A stretch of 64,000 nt of DNA from Thermoanaerobaculia bacterium (GTDB taxonomy: Bacteria; Acidobacteriota; Thermoanaerobaculia; Gp7-AA8). The stretch is taken from NCBI GenBank assembly GCA_017883205.1, contig JADGNZ010000005.1:30989-94988 (forward strand). Direction: 5' to 3'. Position numbers and translations under genes: made by a program. The notes under the pieces were generated by a model. The model was not told the DNA's origin, searched no databases, and saw nothing but the letters and a program-made list of their open reading frames with translations. Below, piece after piece: positions 27,192 through 54,688 of this stretch; position 1 is the first letter of the stretch; each line of letters opens with the position of its first letter.

Positions 27192-27194
27192 GCC

Positions 27195-29030: not shown

Positions 29031-29040
29031 ACTGGAAGGA

Positions 29041-29520: not shown

Positions 29521-30254
29521 CCGTCGGGGAGTGGGTTCGCAACACGTCTGTCTACCGGTCGGTGATCCGGCACGGCATCGCGCCGACGAATCGCAACCGG
29601 TCGTTGATCATCTTCGAGAACCTTTTCCTCCACGTCCATCCCGTGAAGGTGCGGGAGAAGACCCTTCGTTTCACGCACACCTTCTGGCTCGGCGGCATCA
29701 CGCTGGCCAGCACGATCATCCTCGTGGCCACGGGCATCCTGCTGATGTTCTATTACCACCCGTCCGTGCCGCAGGCGTACCGCGACATGAAGGAGCTGCA
29801 GTACGTCGTCGACAACGGCGTCTTCCTGCGCAACCTCCACCGCTGGTCGGCGCACCTGATGGTGTTCAGCGCGTTCCTGCACATGCTGCGCGTCTTCTAC
29901 CACCGCGCCTACCGTCCCCCCCGCCAGTTCAACTGGGTTGTCGGCGTGGTGCTGCTACTCCTGACTTTGTTGCTGTCATACACGGGCTACCTGCTGCCGT
30001 GGGACCAGCTCGCGTTCTGGGGTGTCTCGGTCGGAACGAACATGGCCAAGCAGGCACCGCTGGTCGGCGAGCGCGTCCGCTTCTTCCTCCTCGGCGGCAA
30101 CATCGTCTCGGAGAACGCGCTGCTCCGGTTCTACGTGCTGCACTGCGTCGTCCTGCCGGTAGCGCTTCTGCTCCTCATCTCCGTTCACATCTGGCGTGTG
30201 CGAAAGGACGGGGGAGTGCAGGGACCGCCTGACGACGAGAGGAGATCGCTGTGA
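29517..30254 (+). CDS. Cytochrome b, N-terminal (heme-binding, b6-like) half
   Basis: ATGA overlap with the Rieske stop. Conserved cytochrome-b segments ([47 protein letters not shown]) including the paired His ligands. Confidence 0.9.
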
Positions 30255-30952
30255 CGACACCGATCGAGATCATCGAATCTGACGATCCGCTTGCCAATCC
30301 GTGGCGCGTCGCGCTCGTGCGTCCGGACGGGCGCCCGGCTGTTCACGAGACCGACGAGCGCTACGTCATGACGTTTCCACACCTGATCCTGCGCGAGATC
30401 ATCCTCTTTCAGGTCGTGGTAATCGTCCTCTCGCTTGCGGCGATCCTCTTCAACGCGCCGCTGGAGAGCATCGCTAATCCGGTGGAGACGCCGAATCCGG
30501 CCAAGGCGCCCTGGTACTTCCTCGGTCTTCAGGAATTGCTGCACTACTTTCCGCCGGTCGTGGCCGGAGTGGTGTTGCCGGCGCTTGTCGGCATCTGTCT
30601 GGTGGTCATTCCGTACTGGCGCGTCAATCTCGAAGGAGCACCGCTGTGGGCGGCGCCGTCGCGATGGAAGGCTCCGGCGATCGCGGCGTCGGTCATCCTG
30701 CTTTCGATCCTCTTCGCCGCGTTCAGTTGCTGGCCGATCGTCATACCGACCGTCATCATCGGCGTGGCCATGTTCGCGGCCCATGCCGTGCGCCCGGGCG
30801 GCCGCTGGCAGTGGTTGTGGGGCGTCACGCTGCCGGAATGGATCATGACGTGGTTCGTCGTGATCGCTGTGGTGTTGACCGTGATCGGAACGTTCTTCCG
30901 CGGGCCAGGCTGGAGTTGGGTCTGGCCGTGGATGGACGCACCCCGAGGGTGA
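30251..30952 (+). CDS. Cytochrome b C-terminal half / subunit-IV-like (PEWY-type loop '[13 protein letters not shown]')
   Basis: Overlaps the previous stop by 4 nt. Polytopic membrane protein with a PEWY-equivalent motif, as in split b6/SUIV cytochromes. Confidence 0.85.
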
Positions 30953-30957
30953 GGAGG
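30951..30957 (+). promoter_or_regulatory. Shine-Dalgarno GAGGAGG for the octaheme cytochrome gene (GTG start 30963)
   Basis: ggtGAGGAGGccgatGTG read directly. Confidence 0.6.
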
Positions 30958-30962
30958 CCGAT

Positions 30963-33512: not shown

Positions 33513-34226
33513 TTGATCGCGGCGATATTCGTCACGATCGGAGACTGGCGGCGCCGTTTGAACCTGGCAGACCATGATGAAGAGCTGGCGACACTCTTTC
33601 AGTCGCTCGAACATTCGCCCGATGCCGTCTTCGTGACGGACCGCACGAACCACATCGTCTTCTGGAACGAAGCCGCGCGCCACATGCTCGGGTTCACCGC
33701 CGACGAGGCCATCGGCGGCCACTGCGATCGTCTCCTCGGCGGCAGCGACCCGTTCGGCAACCGCTATTGCACCGACGAGTGTCCGATCATGCGCATCGCC
33801 AACCGCGGCGAGATCGTGCGCAATTTCTCGCTCAATCTGCGCACGAAGGAGAGCCAGCACGTCGTCACACAAGTGAGCGTCCTCCAGCTTCGTGCCGGCG
33901 GTCCCGACGACTACTACCTCGTGCACATGCTTCGCGCGAACGCGGAGCCGGCAGAGCAACGCCCGATCAACGAACCGGTGAGCTCTTCCCGTCCGCGGCT
34001 CGTGGCCGCGCGCGAATCGATCGATGTCCGTGCGCGCAAACTGACCGGCCGCGAAGTCGAGGTGCTCGGAATGCTCGCCGCCGGCCGCACCACTCCCGAG
34101 ATCGCCGAGCGCCTGCACATCGCCCAGCTCACCGCCCGCAGCCACATCCAGAACATTCTGGAGAAGCTCGAAGTGCACTCCAAAGTGGAAGCGGTGGCAT
34201 TCGCGTTTCAGAAGAACCTGATTTGA
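33513..34226 (+). CDS. PAS-domain + LuxR-type HTH transcriptional regulator
   Basis: PAS-like segment (SPDAVFVTDRTNHIVFWNEAARHMLGF...). C-terminal LuxR/GerE HTH (LTGREVEVLGMLAAGRTTPEIAERLHIAQLTARSHIQNILEKL). Start uncertain (TTG at 33513 per the track). Confidence 0.8.
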   Translation: MIAAIFVTIGDWRRRLNLADHDEELATLFQSLEHSPDAVFVTDRTNHIVFWNEAARHMLGFTADEAIGGHCDRLLGGSDPFGNRYCTDECPIMRIANRGEIVRNFSLNLRTKESQHVVTQVSVLQLRAGGPDDYYLVHMLRANAEPAEQRPINEPVSSSRPRLVAARESIDVRARKLTGREVEVLGMLAAGRTTPEIAERLHIAQLTARSHIQNILEKLEVHSKVEAVAFAFQKNLI

Positions 34227-34283: not shown

Positions 34284-34814
34284 TTATTCCGTGGCCCTTG
34301 GGCACACATAGAACGGCTCTACACTCGCGAGGCCGATGAGGAGCTCAACGAAGAATTGGACCGCGGCGATGCCTCGGAGCCTTTTGTCGATCCACTCCTT
34401 GGGGTAGCCTTTCTTTTCGTAGAGCTCCTGCATCCGGCCCATCGCCAGCTCGGGGTTCTCGATCTCGTCAATGCGTTCCTTGCCGACGCGCGCCAGCCAG
34501 CGCTTGAGCGGCTCTACTTTCGGCGAGGGAATGGACTGGATGACCCGGAACAGTGTCTCGGTGTTGGCGCAGTCGGTCTCGTAGAGCTTGCCGTCAGTGG
34601 ACGGCATTTTCAGTTGTCCGATTTTTTCGGACAACTGATCGTAGCCCTCCTCGAACAGCTTCTTCTTCAGGTCATTCCAGTACTTGCGAGCGCGGTCGCC
34701 GCCCACTAATGCCTGGACCACGTCGACGATCGAAAACCACCACTCGCCCTCACGGAGCACCTTTCGGATCTGACGACCTTCGAACACAACGAGCTTATTG
34801 TCGTTTTGACTCAT
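34284..34814 (-). CDS. Bro-N domain protein (DinD / DNA-damage-inducible protein D-like)
   Basis: Bro-N signature NKLVVFEGRQIRKVLREGEWWFSIVDVVQAL...RKYWNDLKKKL. Lys/Glu-rich protein with visibly lower GC and more AAA/GAA codons than its neighbours. Start moved to MSQNDN (ATG ~34814). Confidence 0.65.
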   Translation of the reverse strand: MSQNDNKLVVFEGRQIRKVLREGEWWFSIVDVVQALVGGDRARKYWNDLKKKLFEEGYDQLSEKIGQLKMPSTDGKLYETDCANTETLFRVIQSIPSPKVEPLKRWLARVGKERIDEIENPELAMGRMQELYEKKGYPKEWIDKRLRGIAAVQFFVELLIGLASVEPFYVCPRATE

Positions 34815-34824
34815 TCCCTCCGCC

Positions 34825-35319
34825 TCACTGAATCCCTTCATCGACCGTGAAATCCTGGACCGGCAGCAGGCGATCGCGGTCGAACGGTGGTTTCTCTTTT
34901 GCCGGAAGGGTTATGCCGAAGTCGCGGTGCCAGCGCTCGCGGGTTTCGTCGTCTGCGTAGTAGCGGAGGTAGATCTCGGTGTCTTCGTCGCTGTCGCCGA
35001 GCGGGCTGAGGTGCCAGCCGCCGCCGGAGCCGGGGGCCGGGAGAATCGTTTCCTCGCGAAGGGCGTGCTTGACGAGATAGCGATACAGCTCGCGGTCGCT
35101 GAGGTGATTCGTCGATTCGACGAACACTCCGGCCGCGGCCATGGCGTTGATGAGCTCCCAGAGTCTCGCATGCAGCGTGGCGTCATCGAGATCGCGATCG
35201 TCCGGAGTCGAGACGCCGTTGTCGCGCAGGACGTCGATCGGGCGTTCTCCCTCCTCCTCGCCATCGAAATATCGGTCAAGCCGCTCGATCTCCGCGATCG
35301 GATCGTGGTCGTCAGACAT
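34825..35319 (-). CDS. Acidic hypothetical protein (164 aa), co-directional with and overlapping the Bro-N gene
   Basis: ORF with non-low-complexity acidic composition (MSDDHDPIAEIERLDRYFDGEEEGERPIDVL...). No family recognised. Confidence 0.55.
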   Translation of the reverse strand: MSDDHDPIAEIERLDRYFDGEEEGERPIDVLRDNGVSTPDDRDLDDATLHARLWELINAMAAAGVFVESTNHLSDRELYRYLVKHALREETILPAPGSGGGWHLSPLGDSDEDTEIYLRYYADDETRERWHRDFGITLPAKEKPPFDRDRLLPVQDFTVDEGIQ

Positions 35320-35526
35320 TGTCTAACCTCCTCACGCACCGAGGCTCCCTCGGGATTGCGGGAGAGTCAAGTTTTTCTACTGAGTGGAGAGGCCGGCATT
35401 CGCCGCAGATGCGGGGGCGAGACGCCCCCGGGCCAGCCGGCGAGACGCCAGCGTTCCCTTCGCTTGTGCCTTTCTCGGGTAAGTGTGGCGCGCGTTGTCT
35501 AGGCGTGTCCATCATTGTCCTTTACA

Positions 35527-35543
35527 CACTGACGTGTGATGCG
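35527..35543 (+). promoter_or_regulatory. Imperfect palindrome ACACACTGACGTGTGAT immediately upstream of the first HTH-EIIA gene (possible operator)
   Basis: Read directly: CACAC-TGACG-TGTG dyad 13 nt before ATG 35556. Confidence 0.3.
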
Positions 35544-35555
35544 TAGACTCCCTCC

Positions 35556-36281
35556 ATGCCGGAAACGCAGACTGCAGGGGACATCCTTACGATCCGCCAG
35601 CTTGCGGAGTACCTCATGGTGTCCGAGAAGACGGTCTACCGGATGCTGGACCGGAACGAGTTGCCGGCGATGCGGGTGGGGTCGCAGTGGCGTTTCCGGA
35701 AGCTCGACATCGACAGTTGGCTGACCGAGGAGGTTCGCCGCGTGGAGCACGAAGGGCAGCTCGGGGCGCTCGATGCGCTCGAGATGTCCGAGATCGCGAT
35801 CACGCCGCTCCTCACGCCGGAGAACATCTGGCTCTCCATCACGCCCGCGTCGCGCGACGAATTGCTTGCATTCCTGACGCGCGAGGCGTCGATCGATGCT
35901 CACGTCGACCGCGACCAGCTCTTGCGATCGATCCGCGAGCGCGAGGCCATCTGCTCGACGGCGGTCCTCGAAGGTGCTGCCTTCCCTCATCCGGTCGATC
36001 CACGTCCGTTCCGGTTTTCACGCAAGCGCGTCCTCCTGGCCGTGCTTCGTGAGCCTCTCGACTTCCTCGATCCGCATGGCCACCATCCACGGGTCGTTGC
36101 CGTGATCCTGGCGCGCTCCATTCAGGGGCAACTGCTCGCGTTCTCCCGCGCCATCAAGCTGTTCGCCGATTCCGTTCTCCTCAACAGGCTGCACGCTGTT
36201 CGAACGCCGGACGAGGCGATTCGCCTGATCGGTGACGCCGAAGCGCTGCTTTCGCGGGCCACTCGCAAGGAGGACGCATGA
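35556..36281 (+). CDS. Excisionase/MerR-type HTH fused to PTS EIIA(Ntr)-like (EIIA type-2) domain regulator, paralog 1
   Basis: N-terminal 'LTIRQLAEYLMVSEKTVYRMLDRNELPAMRVGSQWRF' (excisionase-family HTH). C-terminal EIIA-2-like region with 'GAAFPHP' His motif. Confidence 0.8.
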   Translation: MPETQTAGDILTIRQLAEYLMVSEKTVYRMLDRNELPAMRVGSQWRFRKLDIDSWLTEEVRRVEHEGQLGALDALEMSEIAITPLLTPENIWLSITPASRDELLAFLTREASIDAHVDRDQLLRSIREREAICSTAVLEGAAFPHPVDPRPFRFSRKRVLLAVLREPLDFLDPHGHHPRVVAVILARSIQGQLLAFSRAIKLFADSVLLNRLHAVRTPDEAIRLIGDAEALLSRATRKEDA

Positions 36282-36937
36282 AGCTTACGATCGGTGAAGC
36301 AGCGTCCCTTCTCGGGAGTGCCGAAGAGCGCGTGCATGACTGGATCGAAAGTGAGGCGCTCCCGGCTCAGAAGGTCCGCGGACAGTACCGGATCAATCGT
36401 TCCGACCTGCTCGAGTGGGCCACGGAGCACAACATGGGCCTCTCGCCGCGCGCATTCAGCCGCGACGGAGGAACCCCGTCGCTCGCGGATGCGCTTCGGG
36501 CAGGCGGGGTCCATCACCGGATCGGCGGAGCGGACCTCGCCACAATCATCAAAGGGATCGTCGAGCTGCTGCCGCTCCCGGACGATGCCGATCGCGACAT
36601 GCTCTTGCACATCCTTCTGGCGCGCGACACACTCGGCGTCACACCGGTCGGCGATGGCATTGCCATTCCGCACGTGCGGACGCCGATCATCCTCGCCCCT
36701 ACGGATGCGGTGATCGCGCTCTCCTTCCTCACGAATCCGCTCGATCTCCACGCTCCGGATGGCCGGGCCATCGACACTTTCTTCCTCCTCATCTGTCCGA
36801 CGATCCACATGCACCTGGCGATGCTCGCCAAACTCGCCTACGGCCTGAAGGACGAAGCCTTCCGCGAGGCCGTTCGCCGGCGGGCCTCTCCGGAGGAAAT
36901 CGTGCAGATCGCAACGGCGCTTGAAGGGGCATTTTGA
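36278..36937 (+). CDS. Excisionase-type HTH + PTS EIIA(Ntr)-like domain regulator, paralog 2
   Basis: 'LTIGEAASLLGSAEERVHDWIESEALPAQKVRGQYRI' HTH. EIIA-2 signature 'GDGIAIPHVR'. 4-nt overlap with paralog 1 and with the downstream membrane-subunit gene. Confidence 0.8.
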   Translation: MKLTIGEAASLLGSAEERVHDWIESEALPAQKVRGQYRINRSDLLEWATEHNMGLSPRAFSRDGGTPSLADALRAGGVHHRIGGADLATIIKGIVELLPLPDDADRDMLLHILLARDTLGVTPVGDGIAIPHVRTPIILAPTDAVIALSFLTNPLDLHAPDGRAIDTFFLLICPTIHMHLAMLAKLAYGLKDEAFREAVRRRASPEEIVQIATALEGAF

Positions 36938-38883
36938 CGTTGCTGCTGCTCATCGCGAGCATCGTCCTCCTGGCCTTGAGCGGCACTCCCGCGCTCCTCA
37001 CGCGCGGGCGGGCCGGCGAATACGCGAGCACCGCGTTGGTGCTCCTCGGCGCCGCCGGCGGGCTCAGTGCCGCTGGCTACACACTGGCATCTGGCCGCAC
37101 CACCGTCGCCAGCTCGATGTGGCAACTACCGAACGCGCTTCTGGCGCTGCGGCTCGATCCACTCGCGGCGGCGTTTCTCCTTCCGATCTTTGTCCTTGGA
37201 GCGCTCGCGTCGGTCTACGGGCTCGGGTACTGGCCTGCCCAACAGCAAGCGTCGGCTGGCCGCGTGCGCGCCTTCACGGGACTGCTGCTCGCGGGCATGG
37301 CCACCGTCGTCGTGGCGTCGCACGCCATCCTCTTCCTCCTTGCCTGGGAGACGATGGCGATCGCTGCCTTCTTTCTGATCGCGACCGAGGATACGGATGA
37401 AGAGGTGCGAGGTGCGGCATGGCTCTATCTCATCGCGACGCACACCGGCACGCTGGCGCTCTTCGCGCTCTTCGTCGTCATGCGCGCCGAGCGCGGCACG
37501 TTCCTCCTCGGGCCGGTTGCCTCGTCGACGGGCGCGATCACGACATCGGCGATCCTCCTCCTCGCGCTCGTCGGATTCGGTTTCAAGGCTGGCATCGTTC
37601 CGCTGCACTTCTGGCTGCCAGGCGCGCACGCGAATGCCCCGAGCCATGTGTCGGCGCTGCTCTCAGGAGCGATGCTGAAGCTCGGCGTTTACGGGATCAT
37701 CCGAATCATCCTCTTCCTGCCAAAGCCGCCGGTGTGGTGGGGTGGCGTGATCATTACGCTCGGGCTGACCAGTGCCCTCGTCGGAATCAGTCTGGCCATC
37801 AGCCAGGCGGACATGAAGCGGGCGCTCGCGTACTCGAGCATCGAGAACGTCGGGATCATCATCGTCGCCGTGGGGCTGTTCGTCGTGGGACGGGCAACGG
37901 GCGTTCGCACTCTCGCGGCGCTCGGCCTTGCTTCGGCAATCGCGCACGTCTGGAATCACAGCCTCTTCAAGGGTCTCCTCTTTCTCGGCGCCGGGAGTGT
38001 CCTGCATGGCACGGGCACGAGGCGCATCGACCGGATGGGTGGACTCCTCCGCCGCATGCCGGCGACCGGAGCCGTCTTCGTCATCGGTGCGATTGCCGCG
38101 GCGGCGCTTCCTGGCGCAAACGGGTTTGTGAGTGAGTCGCTGCTCTATCTGGGCTTGATCCGTGAGGCGCTGCGCGGCGGCATCGCCACGCTGGCGGCAG
38201 CGATGATTGCTCTCGCCGGTGCGCTCGCGGTGGCCTGTTTTGTCCGGCTCACAGGCGCGATCTTTCTCGGGGTCGCGCGCAGCGATCAGGCTGCCGAGGC
38301 GCACGAAGCGCCATTCTTCATGCGCGCGCCGCTCGTCGTCCTGGCGGTGGCCTGCATCGCGCTCGGCGTGTTTCCGTCCATCACTGCCCACGCGCTCGAA
38401 ACGGTCACAGGCGTCAGCGGTGTCATTGCGCCGTTCCTTCGCGCGATCAGCGTCCCGCTTCAGGCGGCGGCCATCGCGATAGCGCTCGCAGTAGTTGCGC
38501 TTTTCGCCGCTACCCGGCGGAGTCCGCGGCGAGCGACGTGGGACTGCGGATACGCACAGCCCACCGCTCGCATGCAGTACACAGCGAGCTCACTGTCGGA
38601 GTGGTTCACGAGCCGTCTTCTTCCGTCGTTTCTGCGCCCTGTGCTTCGCGTGACGGCACCGAGCGCTCTCTACCCGACGAGCGCCACCCTCAGTGTCGAT
38701 GTCGATGAGCCGTTCGCCGACCGCATCCTGCAACCGCTGGCGGCACGCTGGGCGGCGCGCGCGATGTGGCTTCGCTGGATGCAGCAGGGACGGTTGTCCC
38801 TCTACCTTCTCTATATCTTCGTGGCACTTCTCGCCAGCGTGACGTGGGTGGTGGTGTTCCCGCACATGGGAGCGTTGCGGTGA
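36934..38883 (+). CDS. Complex-I NuoL / hydrogenase-4 HyfB / Mrp MnhA-family proton-pumping antiporter-like membrane subunit
   Basis: 649 aa, many TM helices. Family motifs GVYGIIR, HAWNHSLFKGLLFLGAGSV, WLPGAHANAPSHVSALLSGAM. Confidence 0.85.
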   Translation: MTLLLLIASIVLLALSGTPALLTRGRAGEYASTALVLLGAAGGLSAAGYTLASGRTTVASSMWQLPNALLALRLDPLAAAFLLPIFVLGALASVYGLGYWPAQQQASAGRVRAFTGLLLAGMATVVVASHAILFLLAWETMAIAAFFLIATEDTDEEVRGAAWLYLIATHTGTLALFALFVVMRAERGTFLLGPVASSTGAITTSAILLLALVGFGFKAGIVPLHFWLPGAHANAPSHVSALLSGAMLKLGVYGIIRIILFLPKPPVWWGGVIITLGLTSALVGISLAISQADMKRALAYSSIENVGIIIVAVGLFVVGRATGVRTLAALGLASAIAHVWNHSLFKGLLFLGAGSVLHGTGTRRIDRMGGLLRRMPATGAVFVIGAIAAAALPGANGFVSESLLYLGLIREALRGGIATLAAAMIALAGALAVACFVRLTGAIFLGVARSDQAAEAHEAPFFMRAPLVVLAVACIALGVFPSITAHALETVTGVSGVIAPFLRAISVPLQAAAIAIALAVVALFAATRRSPRRATWDCGYAQPTARMQYTASSLSEWFTSRLLPSFLRPVLRVTAPSALYPTSATLSVDVDEPFADRILQPLAARWAARAMWLRWMQQGRLSLYLLYIFVALLASVTWVVVFPHMGALR

Positions 38884-40832
38884 GCGCGCTCCTCGTGCTC
38901 GCCGGCGTTGCCCTTTGCATGGCCAGCGGCCTTCCCTCACTTGCGACGCGCCGTGCCAGCGCCGCAACGACGGTGATCATCGTCGCCGGCGGCCTGACAG
39001 GTCTCATCGGCGCGGTGCTTGGTCTTACAGGCGGCCCCACCGAGCTCTCGCTCCCCTGGCACATTCCCGGCGGTGCGGTGGCGATTCGCATCGATGCGCT
39101 CTCCGCGTTTTTCGCAGCCCCGGTCTTTCTGCTCGCTGCTGCGGGTGGTCTCTACGCCGATCGCTACTGGCCAGCCGCTCGAACGCGCGCGGGCTACGTT
39201 CGGGCGTTCTTCGGGATCATGACCGGAGCGTTAGCGCTGCTCATGTGCGCCGCGAACACGATTCTCTTTCTGGCCGCGTGGGAGATCGTGGCGGTGTCTT
39301 CCTTCTTTCTCATCGCCACCGAGCACGAGCAGGCAGTGAGCCGGAGCGCCGCGTGGATCTACGTTGCGGCGAGCCATGTGGCAACGCTTGCACTCTTCGC
39401 GATCGTGGCACTTCTCCATGCCGTCACGCACAACTGGGCGTTCGTCCCGCTTCCGCACGGGACAGGCGCGCTTCCGATCGGACATGCGCTGCTGGGCCTT
39501 GCGTTCGTCGCATTCGGCATCAAGGCAGGCCTCATGCCTTTTCACATCTGGCTGCCCGGCGCGCACGCGGCTGCGCCCAGTCACGTCTCCGCCGTGATGT
39601 CCGGCGTGGCGATCAAAATGGGCGTGTACGGGCTCGTGCGCGTGCTCTCGCTCTTCGACGCAGTGCCCTCTGCGTTCGGTACGACGCTGCTGCTGGCCGG
39701 AATCGCGTCGAGCATTCTCGGCGTGGCGTTTGCGCTCGCGCAGCACGACCTCAAGCGTCTGCTCGCTTATCACAGCATCGAGAACATCGGGATCATCGTG
39801 ACCGGGCTCGGGATCGGCGTGCTCGCGCAGGCCCACGGCCAGCCGTTCCTGGCGCTTCTCGGCTACGCAGGCGCGCTGCTCCACGTCTGGAACCACGGCC
39901 TCTTCAAAGCGCTGCTTTTCCTCAGCGCCGGTGCGGCGATTCACGGCGCGCACACGCGCGAGATCGATCGCATGGGCGGCCTGGCGCGACGGATGCCGTG
40001 GACGGCCGCGGCCTTCCTCATTGGCGCCGTGGCGATCACCGGACTTCCACCGCTGAACGGTTTCGTGAGCGAGTGGCTTTTGTACGTCGCGGGCTTTACC
40101 AGCATCACACGGACGCCGCACGGCGGGCCGGTGCTCCTTCTCGTCCTCGTCGTCCCGGCCCTGGCGCTCACCGGCGCGCTCGCGCTGGCGTGCTTCGTCA
40201 AGGCATTCGGTGCCGTTTTTCTCGGCACGCCGCGCTCTGCGGCCGCCGCCGATGCGCATGAGGTTCCGTTCGCGATGCGTGTAGCGATGGTGCCGCTCAT
40301 TCTCGGCTGCGCCGCGATCGGCCTCGTGCCCGCGCTCTTCGCGCCGCTGCTTAGCAGCGCTGTTCATGCCGCGGCGCCGCGACTGATGACGACAGTAACG
40401 TTGACCGCGCTGCTGCAACCGATCCAGATGCCGGCGCTCATCGTCATGGCAGCCGGCATCGCCGCGGTCCTCATCCTGCTCGCTGCAACCCGGCGCGCGG
40501 CCCCGGCATTGACGTGGGACTGCGGCTACGCGGCGCCAACGGCGCGCATGCAATACACGGCGTCATCGGCCGCGCGCGGACTGGTGGGTTTCTTCGCCTG
40601 GGCCATGCCGCCGGTCATCCATGCGCCGCAACCGTTTCCGCTCTTCCCTTCCGCGGCGGCGTTCGAGAGCCACGTTCCGGACACGGTTCTTGATCGAGTA
40701 CTTTTGCCGGTGCTCCGCAGAGCGCGATGGGTGCTCAGTTTTGCGCGCTACTTCCAGCACGGCCGCATGCAGATCTATCTCGTGTATCTCGGGGTCACGC
40801 TCGTCGTGCTCCTGGCCTGGAGTGCCCAATGA
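38880..40832 (+). CDS. Second NuoL/HyfB(HyfD)-family antiporter-like membrane subunit
   Basis: Paralogous to the previous gene (WLPGAHAAAPSHVSAVMSGVAIKMGVYGLVR; LLHVWNHGLFKALLFL). Start set to GTG 38880 (GTGA overlap with the previous stop), in frame with the track ORF. Confidence 0.8.
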   Translation: MSALLVLAGVALCMASGLPSLATRRASAATTVIIVAGGLTGLIGAVLGLTGGPTELSLPWHIPGGAVAIRIDALSAFFAAPVFLLAAAGGLYADRYWPAARTRAGYVRAFFGIMTGALALLMCAANTILFLAAWEIVAVSSFFLIATEHEQAVSRSAAWIYVAASHVATLALFAIVALLHAVTHNWAFVPLPHGTGALPIGHALLGLAFVAFGIKAGLMPFHIWLPGAHAAAPSHVSAVMSGVAIKMGVYGLVRVLSLFDAVPSAFGTTLLLAGIASSILGVAFALAQHDLKRLLAYHSIENIGIIVTGLGIGVLAQAHGQPFLALLGYAGALLHVWNHGLFKALLFLSAGAAIHGAHTREIDRMGGLARRMPWTAAAFLIGAVAITGLPPLNGFVSEWLLYVAGFTSITRTPHGGPVLLLVLVVPALALTGALALACFVKAFGAVFLGTPRSAAAADAHEVPFAMRVAMVPLILGCAAIGLVPALFAPLLSSAVHAAAPRLMTTVTLTALLQPIQMPALIVMAAGIAAVLILLAATRRAAPALTWDCGYAAPTARMQYTASSAARGLVGFFAWAMPPVIHAPQPFPLFPSAAAFESHVPDTVLDRVLLPVLRRARWVLSFARYFQHGRMQIYLVYLGVTLVVLLAWSAQ

Positions 40833-41728
40833 CCGCTGTTCTGCAACTCCTCGTCGTCGTTCTCACAGCGCCACTGCTGCTCGGAGTCATCACCAGGACC
40901 AAGTCTCTGGTGGCAGGGCGGAGCGGGCCGCCCCTCCTGCAGGCGTATTACGACCTCGGGAAACTGCTCCGCAAGGACTCGGTCCTCAGCAGTACGACAA
41001 CGTGGGTGTTCCTGGCCGGTCCCGCGGTCGCTGTGGTCGCGCCACTTCTGGCGTCGCTGCTGCTGCCGCTGGCCGGGCCGCGCGCGCCGCTTGCGTTTAC
41101 GGGCGATCTCATCCTGTTCGTCTACCTCTTCGCGCTTTCGCGTTTCTTCACGACGGCGGCAGCGCTCGACACCGGCTCCGCATTCGAAGGCATGGGTGTT
41201 GCGCGCGAGCTAACCTTCGCAGCGCTGGCGGAACCGGCGCTTTTCTTTGGACTGCTGGCGCTGGCGCGCATCTCAGGCTCGCTGTCGCTTTCTTCGCTGC
41301 TCACCGTCGACGGCGCCAGTTGGCACCGCGCCAGCGCCGCGCTCGTATTGATCATCGCGAGCTGGTTCATCGTGCTCCTCGCTGAAAACTCGCGCGTGCC
41401 GTTCGACGATCCGAACACGCACCTCGAGCTCACGATGATTCACGAGGTGATGGTGCTCGATCACAGCGGCCCCGCCTTTGGCCTCATTCTCTACGGCAGC
41501 GCACTGAAGCTGTTCGTGTTCAGTGCACTGATCGCTGACGTGGTGCTGCCGCGGACCGGAATCTCGCTCGCCGATGCGGCCGCGACGCTCGGTGCGGTGC
41601 TCGTCATCGGCGTCGTCGTCGGACTGGTCGAGAGCAGCATGGCGCGCCTGCGGCTCGTGCGTGTGCCGCAACTTCTCATCGCCGCAAGCCTCGTTGCGGG
41701 CTTCGCCGTCGTGCTCGTTCTGAGGTGA
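40829..41728 (+). CDS. NuoH / HyfC / HycD-like membrane subunit
   Basis: ATGA overlap. ~300-aa polytopic protein with NuoH-like segments (LLQAYYDLGKLLRKD; VPFDDPNTHLELTMIHEVMVLDHSGP). Confidence 0.85.
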   Translation: MTAVLQLLVVVLTAPLLLGVITRTKSLVAGRSGPPLLQAYYDLGKLLRKDSVLSSTTTWVFLAGPAVAVVAPLLASLLLPLAGPRAPLAFTGDLILFVYLFALSRFFTTAAALDTGSAFEGMGVARELTFAALAEPALFFGLLALARISGSLSLSSLLTVDGASWHRASAALVLIIASWFIVLLAENSRVPFDDPNTHLELTMIHEVMVLDHSGPAFGLILYGSALKLFVFSALIADVVLPRTGISLADAAATLGAVLVIGVVVGLVESSMARLRLVRVPQLLIAASLVAGFAVVLVLR

Positions 41729-42369
41729 ACCTGATGCCGCCGATTGCCGACTCCATTCTGATCCTTCTCCTTCTCACGAACTTCTTCATTCTCGGGACGG
41801 CCAATCTCCGTTCCGCGATCCGCGGTGTCGCGCTGCAGGGTCTGCTGCTCGGTGTGCTCCCGTTCTTCGTCGAATCGCATGCAACCGTCCGGCTGGTGCT
41901 GCTCGTCATCGCAACGATGGCGATCAAGGGCGTCGTCATCCCAGGGCTTCTGATGAAGGCACTGCGCGACGTCCATATCCGCCACGAAGTCGAGCCGTAC
42001 CTCGGGTTCGTGCCGACCCTCTTTCTTTGTGCCGCCGGCACCGCTCTGGCGCTCCTGTTCGCGGATCACCTGCCGCTCGCGGCCGCCGACCGCACGGGCC
42101 TTTTCGTTCCGGCCTCGCTGGCCACGCTGTTCTCGGGCTTTCTCGGTCTCACCACGCGCCGCAAGGCCATCTCGCAAGTCACCGGCTACCTCGTTCTCGA
42201 GAATGGGATCTACGTCTTCGGCCTGCTGCTGTATCAATCGATGATGGTCGAAGTCGGCGTTCTGCTCGATCTCCTCGTCGGCATCTTCGTGATGGGGATC
42301 GTCCTCAACCACATTCAACGCGAGTTTTCATCGCTCGATACCGAACGTCTGTCGCGCCTCAGGGAGTAA
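41725..42369 (+). CDS. HyfE-like (hydrogenase-4 component E family) small membrane subunit
   Basis: 214-aa hydrophobic protein in the canonical position between the NuoH-like and NuoN-like genes of hyf-type operons. Confidence 0.7.
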   Translation: MNLMPPIADSILILLLLTNFFILGTANLRSAIRGVALQGLLLGVLPFFVESHATVRLVLLVIATMAIKGVVIPGLLMKALRDVHIRHEVEPYLGFVPTLFLCAAGTALALLFADHLPLAAADRTGLFVPASLATLFSGFLGLTTRRKAISQVTGYLVLENGIYVFGLLLYQSMMVEVGVLLDLLVGIFVMGIVLNHIQREFSSLDTERLSRLRE

Positions 42370-42371
42370 GG

Positions 42372-43802
42372 ATGGCCATGTACCTCATCGTCGTACCGCT
42401 GATCGGCGCGCTGGCCGCGTTCCTGCTCCCCTCGGACCGTCCGCGGCCGTGGATCGTTGCGGCGTTCGCGGTGCTCCATCTGGTGCTCGCGGCGGCGGTG
42501 ACCGCGGAAGGCGAGACGGGTCTGGCCTCGGATTGGTTCCGCTTCGATGCCCTCGGCCGGCTCGTGCTCATCGTTGTGTCGTCACTCTTCTGCATCTGTG
42601 CTCTCTACTGCATCGGGTATCTCCGGCTCCGTTCAAACCGGCCGAATCGCATCTTCTGCACGGCGCTGCTCTTCTTCCTGGCGATGACGAGCCTCGTCGC
42701 ACTCGCGCAGCACCTCACAATCCTCTGGGTGGCGATGGAGGCCACAACACTCGCCACGGCCGTGCTCCTCTACTTCAACCAGAACCAGCGATCGCTGGAA
42801 GCGACCTGGAAGTACCTGATGATCGGCTCCGTAGGAATCGCCCTCGCGCTCCTCGGTACGCTGTTCCTCGCCTACGGTGCGCGCCTCGGACTCGGTGAGC
42901 CGACGCTTCTCTTCTCGGACCTCGTCAAGGGCGCGAAGCACCTTCCGGGCGCATGGGTAAGGACTGCGTTTGTCTTTCTCCTCGTCGGCTACGGTACGAA
43001 GATGGGACTTGCGCCACTCCACACCTGGAAGCCGGATGCATATGGCGAAGCGCCCGGTGTAGTGGGTGCGCTTCTCGCGGGAGGAATGACGACATGCGCG
43101 TTCCTCGCGCTGCTCCGGGTCTACCGCATCACGGACGCTGCTGGGCAGGGAGTCTTCGCCCGCGAGCTTCTCGTCGTCTTCGGCCTGCTCTCGATGGCCA
43201 CCGCCGCGGCATTCATGGTCGGCCAGCGCGATTTCAAGCGCCTCCTTGCGTACTCCAGCGTCGAGCACATGGGTATCCTCGTGCTCGGGATCGGACTCGG
43301 CGGCGCCGGGATTTTTGCGGCGCTCCTGCACACGGTCAACAACGCGCTCACGAAGGGCGTGCTCTTCCTGGCGGCGGGAAACATCCATCGCGCCTTCAAG
43401 AGCAAGCGGCTGGAAGACGTGACGGGTGCCCTGCGGCGCTTGCCGATTTCGGCCGGTCTTTTTCTCGCCGGCTTCTTCGCCATTACCGGCTCGCCTCCGT
43501 TCGGACCGTTCGTCAGTGAGCTGTCGATCCTGACCGCCGCGATGGATACCCGCCGCTACATCGTTGGTGCGCTCTATCTGATTCTTCTCGCGGTCATCTT
43601 CATCGGGATGGGAAGCACGGTTCTCGCGGTCGTGCAGGGCGAGCCGCCGGAGGACACCGAAGGACGCAGCTTCCGCGAGTCTGCATTCAAGACAGTTCCC
43701 ATCATCGTAAGCCTCGCGCTCGTGGTCATGATGGGCGTATGGATTCCGTCGTGGATCCTGACACTCCTCCACGCCGCAGCGCGTCTGCTGGGAGGCTCCT
43801 GA
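42372..43802 (+). CDS. NuoN/NuoM / HyfF-family antiporter-like membrane subunit
   Basis: Start ATG 42372 with GGAGTAAGG upstream (the track ORF begins at 42027 in junk). Motifs TWKPDAYGEAPGVVGALLAGG, LLAYSSVEHMGILVLGIGLGG. Confidence 0.85.
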   Translation: MAMYLIVVPLIGALAAFLLPSDRPRPWIVAAFAVLHLVLAAAVTAEGETGLASDWFRFDALGRLVLIVVSSLFCICALYCIGYLRLRSNRPNRIFCTALLFFLAMTSLVALAQHLTILWVAMEATTLATAVLLYFNQNQRSLEATWKYLMIGSVGIALALLGTLFLAYGARLGLGEPTLLFSDLVKGAKHLPGAWVRTAFVFLLVGYGTKMGLAPLHTWKPDAYGEAPGVVGALLAGGMTTCAFLALLRVYRITDAAGQGVFARELLVVFGLLSMATAAAFMVGQRDFKRLLAYSSVEHMGILVLGIGLGGAGIFAALLHTVNNALTKGVLFLAAGNIHRAFKSKRLEDVTGALRRLPISAGLFLAGFFAITGSPPFGPFVSELSILTAAMDTRRYIVGALYLILLAVIFIGMGSTVLAVVQGEPPEDTEGRSFRESAFKTVPIIVSLALVVMMGVWIPSWILTLLHAAARLLGGS

Positions 43803-43803
43803 G

Positions 43804-45312
43804 ATGAACAGAACCTTCCTCACACGGCGGAATGCGGAACCGGCAGCGCTTGCTGATGTGCCGCTCGTTCAGATCGACGTGTTCCGCACGGCGGTCCTTG
43901 ATGCCGTCCGCGACGAGTGCCGCGTCGTCTCTTTTTTTGCGCGGGAGGTTGTGGATGCGATCGAACTGGTCGCGGTTCTCGCGGATGAAACCACGAGCGA
44001 GCTCGGTTTCGTGCGCTCCCGCATCAACGAGGACCGCTTCGAGTCGCTCACGCCGGAGTGTCCGCAGGTCCAACTCTTCGAGCGCGAGATCGCCGAACAA
44101 TTTGGCATAGAACCGGCCGGTCATCCGTGGCTGAAACCCGTTCGCTTCCAACAGTCGTGGAGGCCGGGGCACAGCGTCTTCGGCGAGACGCTGCCTGGCG
44201 TGACCGACTTCTTCCGCGTCGAAGGCGACGAAATCCACGAGGTTGCGGTAGGACCGGTCCACGCGGGGGTCATCGAGCCGGGCCACTTCCGCTTCCAATG
44301 CCACGGCGAGCATGTTTTCCACCTCGAGACCGCCCTCGGTTACCAGCACCGCGGTATCGAACGCGCTCTCATCGGCGGGCCGTCCGCGAAGACGATTCAC
44401 TACATGGAAACCGCCGCCGGCGACTCAACGATTGGCCACACGCTCGCGTACGCGCAAGCGGTCGAAGCGCTGACTGGCACGCGCGTGCCCGCCCGGGCCC
44501 AGGTACTGCGCGGAATCGCGCTCGAGCTCGAACGGCTCGCCAATCACACAGGCGACCTCGGTGCACTCAGCGGTGATGTCGCCTATCTGCCGGCCGCTGC
44601 GGCCTGCGGGCGCACACGCGGCGACTACCTGAACCTCACCGCGGAGCTCTGCGGCTCGCGCTTCGGCCGAGGTTTCGTGCGCCCGGGCGGCGTGCTCTTC
44701 GACCTTCCTGCCGATCGCATCGACGCCCTCACGGAGCGCTTGCAGGCTGCGACACGGGACACCGTCGATTCGGCCGCGCTCCTCTGGACCACACCGAGCG
44801 TCATCGAGCGCTTCGAGAACACAGGGACGATCGACACCGATGTCTGCGACGAGATCGGGATGGTGGGAGTGCCGGCGCGTGCCTGCGGACGAGGGATCGA
44901 TGTCCGGCACGATTTCCCCTTCGGCGTCTATCGCTTCGTCCACATCCCGGTGATGACCGCGTATCACGGTGACGTCAACTCACGGGCGTTCGTTCGTTGG
45001 TTGGAACTGCAGCGTTCCGCCGATTTCGTCGCCCAGCAGATGCATAGGCTCCCGGCGACGCCGGTCCGCGCGGATGTCGCAGCGTCGCTCGCGCCGGACT
45101 CGATCGTCGCATCGCTCACGGAGGGGTGGCGCGGCGAGATCTGCCACGTGGCGATCACCGATGCCGAGGGGCGATTCGCGCGATACAAGATCACGGACCC
45201 CTCGTTCCACAACTGGTTCGGTGTGGCGCTGGCGCTTCGCAACGGCCAGATCTCCGACTTCCCGCTCTGCAACAAGAGCTTCAACCTCTCGTACTGCGGA
45301 CACGACTTGTGA
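43804..45312 (+). CDS. Fused NuoC(30 kDa)/NuoD(49 kDa)-like 'large subunit' homologous to group-4 [NiFe]-hydrogenase HycE/HyfG but lacking the NiFe-ligating CxxC pairs (Ehr-type)
   Basis: 502 aa. Conserved 49-kDa segments (GPVHAGVIEPGHFRF, ETALGYQHRGIE, HTLAYAQAVEAL). The N-terminal L1 position reads ETAAGDSTIGH instead of R-x-C-G-x-C-x3-H. The C-terminus reads DFPLCNKSFNLSYCGHDL instead of D-P-C-x-x-C. No CxxC pair anywhere. Confidence 0.85.
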   Translation: MNRTFLTRRNAEPAALADVPLVQIDVFRTAVLDAVRDECRVVSFFAREVVDAIELVAVLADETTSELGFVRSRINEDRFESLTPECPQVQLFEREIAEQFGIEPAGHPWLKPVRFQQSWRPGHSVFGETLPGVTDFFRVEGDEIHEVAVGPVHAGVIEPGHFRFQCHGEHVFHLETALGYQHRGIERALIGGPSAKTIHYMETAAGDSTIGHTLAYAQAVEALTGTRVPARAQVLRGIALELERLANHTGDLGALSGDVAYLPAAAACGRTRGDYLNLTAELCGSRFGRGFVRPGGVLFDLPADRIDALTERLQAATRDTVDSAALLWTTPSVIERFENTGTIDTDVCDEIGMVGVPARACGRGIDVRHDFPFGVYRFVHIPVMTAYHGDVNSRAFVRWLELQRSADFVAQQMHRLPATPVRADVAASLAPDSIVASLTEGWRGEICHVAITDAEGRFARYKITDPSFHNWFGVALALRNGQISDFPLCNKSFNLSYCGHDL

Positions 45313-45498
45313 GGCAGAAGGATGAGGGCAGAAGGATGAAGGATGAAGTACGAAAAGAGCTTTCACGATTTGGTTTGGGAAATGCGAAAAACGAGGACAG
45401 AAATGAGATTTCGTAAGCTGGGCAGCCATTCATCCTTCATCCCTCATCCTTCATCCTTCAATTCTCATCCTCCATCCTTCATCCTTCATCCTTCTGCC
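45312..45498. repeat. Intra-operon inverted repeat (GAGGGCAGAAGGATGAAGGATGAAG ... CTTCATCCTTCATCCTTCTGCCCTC) enclosing ~100 bp, with tandem heptamers (AAGGATG / CATCCTT)n on each arm
   Basis: Read directly at 45312-45349 and 45432-45498. The arms are reverse complements over >=22 bp. Positioned between the large-subunit stop and the ferredoxin/NuoB-like start (ATG 45504), which lacks a Shine-Dalgarno. Confidence 0.75.
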
Positions 45499-45503
45499 CT
45501 CCC

Positions 45504-46292
45504 ATGTTGAAAGCACTGCTCACACGAGCGCGACAGGGCCATCGGACGATGCGCTATCCCGACGGGCCGGCGCCCCCCCTGCCGGCGCACTTCCGCGGTG
45601 TGCCGCGCATCGATCCCACCCGTTGTCCGGACGGGTGCCGCGTCTGCGCCGATGCCTGTCCGACGAACGCCATCACGGTCGCCGGCGGCACCGTTGCCCT
45701 CGATCTCGGACTTTGCATCTTCTGCCCGGAATGCGAGACGGCCTGTCCTGAGGGTGCGATCACGTTCACCGATGACTATCGCCTCGCCGCGCGCACGCGC
45801 GCCGATCTGCACCTTCTCGCGGGAGAGGAGCGGAGGCTCGCCGATGCACTCGACGCGAAGCTCCGGCGTTTGTTCGGACGCTCCCTCAAGCTCCGCGTCG
45901 TGAGTGCCGGCGACTGCAATGGCTGCGCGTCCGACGTCAACGTCCTCGGCACGATCGGCTGGGACATCGGCCGCTTCGGCATCCAGTACGTCGCCTCGCC
46001 GCGGCATGCGGACGGGATCATCATCGTGGGACCGGTCACGGAGAACATGCGGCTGGCGCTACGCAAGACGTACGACGCCATTCCCGCCCCGAAGATCGTG
46101 ATCGCGATCGGCGCATGCGCAATTTCCGGCGGCATCTACGCCGGTCATCCCGAACAGCAGGACGGCGTGGAAAGCATGCTCCCCGTCGATCTCTTCATCC
46201 CCGGCTGTCCGCCGCATCCCCTCACCATCCTCGACGGATTCCTCCGGCTCCTCGGGCGGATTGAGGGTGTCACCCACGGTGGACAGTCCTAA
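45504..46292 (+). CDS. Fusion of 2x[4Fe-4S] ferredoxin (NuoI/HycF-like) and NuoB/HycG-like small subunit (N2-type cluster ligands retained)
   Basis: CPDGCRVCADACP and CIFCPECETACP. Then GDCNGCASD...GACAISGG...PGCPPHP (NuoB/hydrogenase small-subunit signature). Confidence 0.85.
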   Translation: MLKALLTRARQGHRTMRYPDGPAPPLPAHFRGVPRIDPTRCPDGCRVCADACPTNAITVAGGTVALDLGLCIFCPECETACPEGAITFTDDYRLAARTRADLHLLAGEERRLADALDAKLRRLFGRSLKLRVVSAGDCNGCASDVNVLGTIGWDIGRFGIQYVASPRHADGIIIVGPVTENMRLALRKTYDAIPAPKIVIAIGACAISGGIYAGHPEQQDGVESMLPVDLFIPGCPPHPLTILDGFLRLLGRIEGVTHGGQS

Positions 46293-46873: not shown

Positions 46874-47449
46874 ATGCTCGAAGCGCACAGGCTCCATCGC
46901 TACACCTACGCCGAGTACGTAGCGCTCGAGATGATCTCCGCCGAAAAGCACGAGTTTCTGGACGGCGAAATCTACGCGATGGCTGGTGGTTCGGAGGAAC
47001 ACTCCGCTCTGGCGGCAGAGATGGTTCACGCACTCGTGAACGCCGTCGGCGATGGTCCCTGCCGCGTCCACACCTCGGACCTGCGGATCTTTGTTGAATC
47101 TGTTGGCCTGGCGACGTTTCCCGATTGCTCGGTAGTCTGCGGCCCGCTGCTGCAGCACCAGCCCAGCCCGAAGGCGACGGCGCTCAATCCAACGATTCTC
47201 GTCGAGGTGACCAGTGACTCATCGGAAGAGTACGACAGAGGGCTGAAACTCGAGTACTACCGCACGATCCCAACCCTGCGCGAATACGTAATCGTGTCGC
47301 ATCGCGAGCGGCGGATCGTCGTCGAAACGCGCGGAAACGACGGCACGTGGACTACGCGCGAAGCGATGAAGGGAGAGCGGATCAACGTCGCCTCTCAGGA
47401 CGCCGAGATCATCGTCGACGAGATTTACCGCCACAGTTCGGTGCGGTGA
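46874..47449 (+). CDS. Uma2-family (DUF820) putative endonuclease, second copy
   Basis: MLEAHRLHRYTYAEYVALEMISAEKHEFLDGEIYAMAGGSEEHSALAAEMV... family-typical, 191 aa. Confidence 0.8.
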   Translation: MLEAHRLHRYTYAEYVALEMISAEKHEFLDGEIYAMAGGSEEHSALAAEMVHALVNAVGDGPCRVHTSDLRIFVESVGLATFPDCSVVCGPLLQHQPSPKATALNPTILVEVTSDSSEEYDRGLKLEYYRTIPTLREYVIVSHRERRIVVETRGNDGTWTTREAMKGERINVASQDAEIIVDEIYRHSSVR

Positions 47450-51137: not shown

Positions 51138-51359
51138 ATGACCACGACGAGCAGGAACGCCAGAATCGCAGGGTTCCTCTATCTATTACTGGCGATCGCC
51201 GGCCCCCTCCGTTTCATGTACATTCCCGATACCCCGTTTGCGCATGGGAGCCTCACTCAGCTACTTGGTGTACGCCTGCAAATTCGGTCGGAACACCTGA
51301 GTGCTGATGCCGGGATGTTTGTTTTCGATCGTATCGTTGGCGGATTCTTCATCCTTTAA
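51138..51359 (+). pseudogene. Possible N-terminal remnant of a DUF4386-like membrane protein gene (MTTTSRNARIAGFLYLLLAIAGPL...), truncated after ~73 codons where it meets the 3' end of the convergent effector gene
   Basis: The N-terminus resembles the DUF4386 family start (recalled from memory, not searched). The ORF is short and overlaps the effector gene's 3' end by ~100 nt. The surrounding 51260-52100 segment is visibly less GC-rich. Confidence 0.35.
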
Positions 51360-53249: not shown

Positions 53250-53275
53250 GTGAAAAGCACCCCAAGTGCCGACTC

Positions 53276-54676: not shown

Positions 54677-54688
54677 GATGGCTCTCCC

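Follow-up and report, generated by a model that had tools for sequence, protein, structure and literature searches.

An Ehr-type operon preceded by two HTH-EIIA regulator genes in a Thermoanaerobaculia bacterium

The DNA analysed here is a stretch of 64,000 nucleotides from a Thermoanaerobaculia bacterium (GCA_017883205.1, contig JADGNZ010000005.1). It is called the window below, and its G+C content is about 64%. The subject is a run of nine co-directional genes on the plus strand at 35556-46292, which consists of two regulator genes (reg1 and reg2) and seven structural genes (Table 1). The domains were assigned by Pfam and NCBIfam profile matches that were far above chance. Judged from its sequence, the region is an ordinary member of the known Ehr (energy-converting, or Ech, hydrogenase-related) family. 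The two regulators are proteins in which a helix-turn-helix (HTH) domain is joined to an EIIA domain of the phosphotransferase system (PTS).

All nine open reading frames (ORFs) are intact and have a high third-position G+C. At five junctions, the start codon of a gene overlaps the stop codon of the gene before it by 4 nt (ATGA, TTGA or GTGA), and two further junctions have gaps of 1-2 nt. Only ehrS is set apart, by a repeat element of 191 nt. The two regulator genes and the structural genes are translationally coupled. A preliminary description of this DNA had proposed a Hyf-like gene order with the regulator genes overlapping the operon start. The Pfam and NCBIfam content and the coordinates of all nine genes confirmed the order, and the stop codon of reg2 indeed overlaps the start of the first HyfB-like gene.

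Table 1. Positions of the operon genes and associated sequence features in the window
Feature	Length	Position	Strand	Evidence or sequence
Candidate operator for HTH-EIIA proteins		35496-35520	+	three phased direct repeats, TGTCT-N6-TGTCC-N5-TGTCC
Predicted sigma-70-like promoter		35521-35549	+	TTTACA-17-TAGACT; consensus scan, weak, pattern-level prediction
reg1	241 aa	35556-36281	+	Pfam HTH_17, residues 11-58 (9.8e-17); PTS_EIIA_2, residues 85-225 (2e-12)
reg2	219 aa	36278-36937	+	Pfam HTH_17, residues 3-51 (5.7e-11); PTS_EIIA_2, residues 107-211 (2e-16)
EhrA-like subunit 1 (HyfB/NuoL-like, antiporter-type)	649 aa	36934-38883	+	Proton_antipo_M (8.5e-49)
EhrA-like subunit 2 (HyfB/NuoL-like, antiporter-type)	650 aa	38880-40832	+	Proton_antipo_M (1.4e-48)
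EhrB (NuoH/HyfC-like membrane subunit)	299 aa	40829-41728	+	Pfam NADHdh (1.3e-33), full model length
EhrC (HyfE-like membrane subunit)	214 aa	41725-42369	+	NF008556 (4.3e-24); Pfam Oxidored_q2 weak
EhrD (HyfF/NuoN-like, antiporter-type)	476 aa	42372-43802	+	Proton_antipo_M (8.9e-48)
EhrL (NuoC/NuoD-like fusion)	502 aa	43804-45312	+	Complex1_49kDa (5e-35); Complex1_30kDa (2e-8)
EhrL L1 position		44407-44439	+	ETAAGDSTIGH
EhrL L2 position		45256-45309	+	DFPLCNKSFNLSYCGHDL
Inverted repeat between ehrL and ehrS	191 nt	45313-45503	+	arms of (GAAGGAT)n heptamers and their complement; eight heptamer-pair matches, all here
EhrS (NuoI/HyfH-like and NuoB/HyfI-like fusion)	262 aa	45504-46292	+	Oxidored_q6 (3.3e-26); Fer4_7 (1.9e-8)

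The large subunit, the iron-sulphur wiring and the antiporter-type subunits

The best match of EhrL among all PDB chains was E. coli HycE (7z0s_E, 4.8e-41, phmmer), followed by T. thermophilus Nqo4 and Pyrococcus MbhL. The preliminary description had claimed that this large subunit is without NiFe-binding cysteines and had called for an alignment at the L1 and L2 positions. The alignment was made by MAFFT with E. coli HycE, HyfG and NuoCD, two Cys-bearing relatives and five Cys-less relatives. At L1, EhrL has TAAGDSTIGH where HycE and HyfG have RVCGICGFAH and the two Cys-bearing relatives have RVCGACSFSH or RICGVCAASH. The CGxC-type cysteines are absent from EhrL, and its phmmer alignment to HycE showed the same. 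At L2, EhrL has NLSYCGHDL in place of DPCYSCTDR, and the motif of the aligned hydrogenases is (D/N/E)(P/L)CYSCTD(R/L). The four NiFe ligand positions are occupied by Ala205, Ser208, Ser496 and Gly499, none of which is cysteine. No Cys pairs stand at either position, and a separate genuine large subunit is not present elsewhere in the operon. The claim was confirmed in this respect.

Two cysteines lie close to L2. At C498, which stands in SYCG one residue off the ligand position, the family has C, S or A, and at C489 it has C, I, V, N or S. Because both vary across the Cys-less family, they are not essential. In contrast to HycE and HyfG, EhrL is missing the C-terminal extension of 32 residues. 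Asp207 is conserved in at least 90% of the family. The pairwise identity of EhrL is 24-25% to HycE and likewise to HyfG, 20% to E. coli NuoCD, 32-33% to the Cys-bearing relatives and 56% to the large subunit of Geomonas limicola.

The Cys-less large subunit belongs to a large family. Of 1.84 billion cluster representatives searched, 6062 matched EhrL at E<=1e-3, and 849 of these did so at E<=1e-30. For a motif survey, representatives at 50% identity were filtered to a length of 440-600 aa and 97 of them were aligned. The motifs xxGD[ST]xxxH and FPLCNKSFNLSY[C/S/A]GxDL were present in nearly all of these EhrL-type representatives, and the cysteines were retained in only two. The closest relatives, with 63-96% identity, are proteins of metagenome-assembled genomes (MAGs) named Thermoanaerobaculia or Acidobacteria, and an exact-sequence look-up of the 502-aa protein found no identical entry on record. 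Domains of hyp or nickel-transport proteins were not found by Pfam among the 36 other ORFs of the window. The earlier statement that hyp and maturation genes are missing holds for these ORFs, and a 64-kb window says nothing of the remaining genome.

EhrS is composed of a NuoI/HyfH-like 2x[4Fe-4S] domain (residues 1-105) and a NuoB/HyfI-like [4Fe-4S] domain (residues 138-254), and NF009053 and NF005012 were matched too. All 12 cluster cysteines are kept, at residues 41, 45, 48, 52, 71, 74, 77, 81, 138, 141, 205 and 235. They form two CxxCxxCxxxCP-type motifs and the four ligands of a NuoB-type cluster. Each is conserved in 68-75 of 79 relatives, the exceptions being mostly alignment gaps, which agrees with the earlier proposal that the cysteines of both the NuoB-type cluster and the ferredoxin part are retained.

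A similar conservation was observed in the antiporter-type subunits. Glu139, Lys218 and Lys346 of HyfB-like 1 are invariant in 74 relatives, and Glu135, Lys215 and Lys343 of HyfB-like 2 are invariant too. In EhrD, 57 of 61 relatives keep Glu123, and Lys210 and Lys328 do not vary. We take this glutamate and the two lysines to be the residues of transmembrane helices 5, 7 and 12 of NuoL/M/N. The conserved cluster cysteines and Glu/Lys residues argue against a decayed operon and also against a purely non-redox transporter.

The two HyfB-like proteins are 44% identical to each other, and their sequences point to an old divergence. Related loci are designated here by L numbers. L085, a relative with 90% identity, has a single HyfB-like gene (4958-6910), and the counterpart of HyfB-like 1 is missing. 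An extra HyfB-like gene is located upstream of the regulator in Verrucomicrobiota, and the pair of regulator and HyfB-like genes is inverted relative to the remaining operon in some Geobacteraceae. Because its presence and placement vary in this way, the extra antiporter-like subunit behaves as a mobile module.

The HTH-EIIA regulators and the repeats upstream of them

The HTH_17 domains of the two regulators score 61.4 and 42.9 bits against a Pfam gathering score of 27, and an excisionase-type N-terminal HTH is present in every HTH-EIIA copy. The candidate phospho-histidines are His145 in reg1 (AAFPHP) and His132 in reg2 (GIAIPH). The segment GDGIAIPHVR of reg2 aligns with GQGVAIPHGR of PtsN (2a0j; also the PtsN structures 3urr and 1a6j), and AAFPH of reg1 aligns with AVPH of IIA-Mtl (1a3a). 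The preliminary description had suggested examining the conservation of this histidine, and it was kept in 54 of 55 regulator copies adjacent to Ehr genes. A second histidine, His179 of reg2, hardly varies among proteins of the reg2 type, and glutamine occupies its position in reg1.

The two proteins share only 23% identity and are therefore ancient paralogues rather than the product of a recent tandem duplication. The earlier view of two tandem paralogous HTH-EIIA regulators stands with respect to domains and paralogy, and it does not hold if a recent duplication is meant. The widespread Ehr-linked type is reg2, for which 417 homologues were found. Orthologues of the reg1 type were found in L001, L082, L085, L087, L070 and L072.

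The EIIA domains of PtsN, MtlR and LicR have the PTS_EIIA_2 fold and the G-x-A-I-P-H phospho-acceptor motif in common with the regulators of the window. Unlike PtsN, which is a protein of about 150-160 aa that stands alone, the window regulators carry an N-terminal HTH_17 domain, and unlike MtlR/LicR-type regulators they have no PRD domains. Against the PtsN equivalog model (TIGR01419/PRK10896), they score 54.9 and 28.1 bits, far from its cut-off of 138.7. The public name of HTH-EIIA proteins, 'PTS sugar transporter subunit IIA', is probably a misnomer. An NCBIfam match of the regulator HTH to an anti-phage MADS1 protein was dismissed, as it was below the cut-off and concerned the HTH only.

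The link between the regulators and Ehr was examined in both directions. In the forward direction, one genome per species was scanned with an alignment of Cys-less large subunits. The scan gave 80 loci, and four more were added by exact look-up. The phyla include Planctomycetota, Verrucomicrobiota, Desulfobacterota/Geobacterales, Acidobacteriota, Spirochaetota, Gemmatimonadota, Omnitrophota, Cloacimonadota and Fibrobacterota, among others. Local synteny by phmmer and hidden Markov models (HMMs) covered 63 Ehr loci that have their 5' end on the contig, and it placed an HTH-EIIA gene next to about 46 of them, in at least eight phyla. In the reverse direction, metagenomes were scanned with an alignment of eight regulator sequences, and 80 loci with 38-50% identity were collected, 70 of them informative downstream. 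A HyfB-like gene is immediately 3' of the regulator in 67 of these 70, and the remaining Ehr set follows where the contig continues. In one locus (L163, 6784-8466), a SulP gene stands directly 3' of the regulator with no Ehr genes on the remaining contig. The result of the reverse test indicated that the HTH-EIIA family is essentially dedicated to Ehr clusters.

In the searchable literature, which did not cover the two founding Ehr papers, no description of a link between HTH-EIIA proteins and Ehr was found. No mention was found there of GSU0738 or of PTS_EIIA_2 together with HTH_17.

A few loci have an HTH-EIIA gene within the cluster, immediately 5' of ehrL, behind ehrS, or flanked by the HyfB-like and NuoH-like genes (L030, 3-2422; L036, 9110-11485; L072, 7494-9875; L070, 6709-7467; L058, 6248-6922). 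The stop-to-stop regulator ORFs of L036 and L072 run into ehrL.

The candidate operator lies just upstream of reg1. The pattern TGTCY-N5-6-TGTCY was matched twice in the window, both times here, against an expectation of 0.75. Matches were then counted by position, with the interval from -200 to +20 of the regulator start on the same strand taken as the regulator-start interval. Within the genome loci and the window (1.45 Mb), 18 of 27 matches fall into this interval, in 13 loci, and three further matches lie at the junction of the regulator and HyfB-like genes or before a mis-extended regulator ORF. The independent metagenome loci (0.5 Mb) gave 29 of 38 matches in the interval, in 27 of 80 loci. 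Six of the other nine also adjoin a regulator start, five of these on the opposite strand. Taken together, 47 of 65 matches fall into intervals that together cover about 0.7% of the searched sequence (roughly 2 Mb), and two more are in L085.

A direct repeat just upstream of the regulator was present in 40 loci, the window included. The operator-like consensus is wTGTCCA-N4-TGTCCA with a 10-bp phase, and phased repeats such as ATGTCCAAAAATGTCCAAAG recur in the upstream regions. The repeats of the window are conserved base for base in L085. Head-to-tail repeats fit the known behaviour of excisionase-type HTH proteins. The evidence for an operator comes from the position conserved across phyla and not from the count in the window.

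Both hexamers of the predicted promoter and their spacing are conserved in L085, and the spacer sequence differs. The prediction ends 7 nt before the ATG of reg1, and the distance to the GTG in L085 is similar (3511-3560). These short distances suggest, at the level of sequence, that the mRNA of the first gene may be leaderless or nearly so. A CACAC-N4-GTGTG palindrome in the promoter spacer was considered as a MerR-type operator and dropped because it is not conserved in the relative with 90% identity. A tandem repeat, (GTCATCTCCACTTTT)n, was also seen immediately 5' of the regulator gene in a Planctomycetaceae MAG (L030, 1-110).

The repeat hairpin and the neighbouring genes

The RNA of the inverted repeat between ehrL and ehrS is predicted to fold with -69.6 kcal/mol (z = -3.8). 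In L001, the gap between ehrL and ehrS is only 10 nt and the element is absent. In L085 (11510-11745), the element is found at the same place with a partly conserved centre, and the heptamer is GGCAGAA on both arms. Since the heptamer differs on both arms alike, the pairing of the arms is preserved. An Rfam scan of the operon gave no family at threshold, and sub-threshold matches to miRNA-like hairpins fell on this intergenic repeat only. The repeat might be an mRNA stabiliser, a processing site or a small mobile repeat.

Upstream of the operon, a PAS-LuxR regulator gene (33513-34226) is followed by two minus-strand ORFs (34284-35319), one with a Bro-N domain and the other small and unknown. 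Downstream, a Uma2-family nuclease gene (46874-47449) lies near genes for a LytTR response regulator, a LytS-type kinase, an esterase and contractile-injection-system-like proteins. The neighbours in the window are not conserved with Ehr in other lineages, except that Bro-N and Uma2 recur in L085, whose flanks also contain an inserted cation-efflux (CDF) gene. Bro-N and Uma2 are genes usually associated with mobile elements.

Farther upstream, the genes at 25139-32990 form a co-directional cluster. Their products are a 483-aa protein that is unknown, one that is cupredoxin-like, a 611-aa NAD(P)H Fe-S flavoprotein of the GltD-like type, the N- and C-terminal halves of cytochrome b from separate genes, and a 675-aa multihaem and mono-haem cytochrome c. 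The part from the cupredoxin-like protein to the cytochrome c gene is 26616-32990. This cluster looks like an unusual bc-type respiratory module, and other genomes show no link between it and Ehr. The minus strand carries a xanthine-dehydrogenase-family pair (21722-24408) and, at 6299-21545, genes for three proteins with lengths of 815, 1731 and 2248 aa. Ig, PKD and CarboxypepD_reg repeats occur in the largest, and the two smaller ones are without a Pfam match. At the other end of the window, the minus strand at 51261-63041 contains large eCIS_core, transglutaminase-like and DUF6519 genes, as are typical for contractile injection systems. Two proteins encoded there, each about 1000 aa long, are without a Pfam match.

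Relation to known complexes and interpretation

The Ehr complex was first described in Geobacter. It has been reported in Geobacter, Nitrospira, relatives of Cyanobacteria and ammonia oxidisers, and its function has been given as unknown since the first description. Ehr itself is not new, and it is defined by its lack of the NiFe ligands, which has been reported widely. In Geobacter sulfurreducens, GSU0739-45 correspond to EhrA-1, EhrA-2, EhrB, EhrC, EhrD, EhrL and EhrS, and the subunits were detected as proteins that are more abundant on formate, with a role that was never investigated (PMC7894505). Ehr was noted in Margulisbacteria, Saganbacteria and Melainabacteria (PMC6349859), and in comammox Nitrospira it was placed close to group 4f (PMC10284858). 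About half of the Nitrospirales genomes contain Ehr, which is described there as having an unknown function and as not induced by H2 (PMC12342949).

The Ehr-type identity put forward in the preliminary description is supported by the gene set, by the loss of the NiFe ligands and by the match to the literature definition. Compared by description rather than by alignment, the Ehr of Geobacter sulfurreducens has the same seven types of structural genes in the same order, the same loss of NiFe ligands and the same retained cluster. The window differs from it in lineage, which is Thermoanaerobaculia-like Acidobacteriota. In Geomonas limicola (L027), which provides the large subunit 56% identical to EhrL, the order is the same and a second HyfB-like gene is present. 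The Geobacteraceae/Geomonas loci L027 and L028 agree with the window in gene order and likewise carry a second HyfB-like gene and an HTH-EIIA gene. In contrast to most Ehr loci, which have one regulator, the window has two regulator paralogues and, in addition, the repeat hairpin between ehrL and ehrS.

The subunits are also homologous to those of E. coli HyfABCDEFGHIJ and HycBCDEFG (7z0s). The order B-C-E-F-G-H-I is the same, and HycE is 25% identical to EhrL. However, the window is without the NiFe cysteines, the C-terminal extension and equivalents of HyfA, HyfD, HyfJ, HycH and HycI. HyfH and HyfI are fused in the window, and there is no FhlA/HyfR-type sigma-54 regulator. The curated cut-offs of the NCBIfam Hyf models were missed for HyfB (NF005086; 526.7 bits against 667 for HyfB-like 1 and 519 against 667 for HyfB-like 2), HyfE (NF008556; 85.6 against 136), HyfF (342.2 against 610) and HyfH (67.4 against 270). 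No Hyf, NuoD or NuoB equivalog model reaches its curated cut-off with the window proteins.

The Cys-bearing relatives P0343 and P0375, with 32-33% identity, share FPL(V/I)NKSF(N/E)L around L2 and the missing C-terminal extension with EhrL. Unlike EhrL, they keep CGxC and CYSC, and they are presumably group-4f-like [NiFe] hydrogenases. Complex I (T. thermophilus Nqo4, 4hea) shares the fold family, the Fe-S wire to an N2-like cluster and the NuoH-like and antiporter-like subunits. In contrast to complex I, the window is without the NuoEFG input module and without NuoA, NuoJ and NuoK as such. Neither the operon nor the flanks of related loci contain the NuoE/F/G module. An unbiased clustering of the flanking ORFs of 84 loci gave no conserved electron-input partner, and only generic families were obtained (histidine kinases, ABC ATPases, sigma-54 activators and an integrase).

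The region probably represents an Ehr-type complex together with its own transcription factors, and the following mechanism is proposed. A low-potential cytoplasmic donor, most likely reduced ferredoxin, would feed electrons through three [4Fe-4S] clusters. The reason for preferring ferredoxin is that the vicinity neither encodes nor conserves an input module such as NuoEFG or FdhH. The electrons would reach a non-metal acceptor site at the interface of EhrL, EhrS and EhrB, where a substrate other than protons would be reduced. Menaquinone is the likeliest candidate. The reaction would drive translocation of H+ or Na+ via the HyfB-like and HyfF-like subunits, and operation in reverse may occur. 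The two HTH_17-EIIA proteins would bind head to tail on the phased TGTCC repeats beside the operon promoter, and their activity would shift on phosphorylation of His145 (reg1) or His132 (reg2) by an HPr/NPr-type protein. With regulators controlled in this way, the expression of Ehr would follow the state of a PTS-type relay, that is, phosphoenolpyruvate/pyruvate and carbon/nitrogen status. Control by the nitrogen PTS, as suggested in the preliminary description, agrees with the conserved Ehr-linked regulator, the kept histidine and the candidate operator, and the nitrogen PTS would be a presumed phosphoryl donor.

Several observations weigh against this interpretation. In the phmmer alignment to 2fug_4, Nqo4 Tyr87 and His38, which we take to be the quinone head-group ligands of the T. 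thermophilus protein, correspond to Gly206 and Ile157 of EhrL, so that EhrL shows no evident quinone site of the canonical kind. The regulator is lacking from about a quarter of the Ehr loci, for instance those of Geothrix and Holophagaceae, and the regulator HMM found no divergent copies in the loci without one. HPr/NPr or EI genes were not seen in the window or in the locus flanks. The count of the repeats in the window alone is not significant, and the promoter call is a weak consensus match. The position of the repeats also differs among lineages: they are upstream of the -35 in Thermoanaerobaculia and over -10/+1 in several examples from Verrucomicrobiota and Planctomycetota. Finally, we infer the donor, the acceptor and the pumped ion of Ehr complexes alike.

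Four other explanations were considered. The region could encode a genuine [NiFe] group-4 hydrogenase of the Hyf/FHL-2 type (formate hydrogenlyase 2), with the metal held by unusual ligands or shifted cysteines. HycE as the best PDB match, the Hyf-like order and the location of C498 and C489 at or near L2 would fit such an enzyme. It is nevertheless very improbable, considering the four non-Cys ligand positions, the variability of both cysteines in the family, the lack of the C-terminal maturation extension and of hyp genes in the window, the Hyf equivalog scores that all fall below their cut-offs, and the absence of a reported H2 response for Nitrospira Ehr (PMC12342949). Hardly credible at all is a decaying, non-functional hydrogenase operon that has lost its active site. 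The loss of the catalytic cysteines and the 191-nt element inserted between ehrL and ehrS are what decay might produce. However, the nine ORFs are intact and coupled, the Cys-less motif GD[ST]xxxH is strongly conserved in a large family across many phyla together with Asp207, and the Fe-S and antiporter residues are conserved. Detection of the Ehr subunits as proteins in Geobacter also argues against decay (PMC7894505).

A different possibility is that the complex is not primarily respiratory. It would then be a redox-powered machine of ion or anion homeostasis that works with a SulP transporter under a PTS(Ntr)-like switch, as in K+ transport of Proteobacteria, where EIIA(Ntr) is known for its control of ion transporters. 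A gene for a SulP-family anion transporter (Sulfate_transp and STAS domains) adjoins the regulator or the operon in L003 (2603-4360), L004, L030, L050, L057, L071, L077, L078 and L084, and the regulator of L163 precedes a SulP gene alone. In loci of Verrucomicrobiota and Geobacteraceae, the regulator is paired with additional HyfB-like genes that stand alone. The SulP adjacency suggests a regulon shared with Ehr in some lineages. As an account of the complex, this reading is unlikely, because the window has no SulP gene and only about 10% of the loci do, the complete Fe-S wire speaks for a real transfer of electrons to a substrate, and no transported ion or anion is identifiable from the sequence. 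To a similarly small degree, we consider that the HTH-EIIA proteins are not transcription factors but accessory or assembly subunits, or post-translational regulators that dock as unphosphorylated EIIA(Ntr) does. Their co-translation with the structural genes would agree with this role, as would the regulator genes inside the cluster or directly before ehrL in L030, L036, L058, L070 and L072. The excisionase-type HTH in every copy and the phased repeat at the 5' end of the regulator across phyla speak against it. An accessory role is also compatible with a role in transcription, and both could hold.

A bolder generalisation of the Ehr reading joins some of these elements. Ehr in at least eight phyla would be under a class of undescribed one-component HTH-EIIA(Ntr) regulators acting on TGTCCA repeats, with a regulon that includes SulP and stand-alone HyfB-like genes in some lineages. 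Ehr would then be a PTS-signalled, ferredoxin-driven machine for energising ion or anion transport and not a cryptic hydrogenase. We regard this proposal as speculative and give it a rather low probability.

The new part of this study is comparative. A dedicated HTH-EIIA regulator, a conserved phospho-histidine and a candidate operator accompany most Ehr operons, and the nitrogen-PTS signal, the ferredoxin donor and the menaquinone acceptor are what we infer from here. A further suggestion from this result is that, in PTS-poor phyla, many database entries labelled 'PTS sugar transporter subunit IIA' are transcription factors. The linkage of the regulator is a moderate advance in comparative genomics and a practical route to the long-open question of Ehr. 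The regulator gene, its histidine and the TGTCCA repeats can be used as handles in tractable hosts, for example Geobacter, to find the conditions that induce Ehr, and hence its physiological role.

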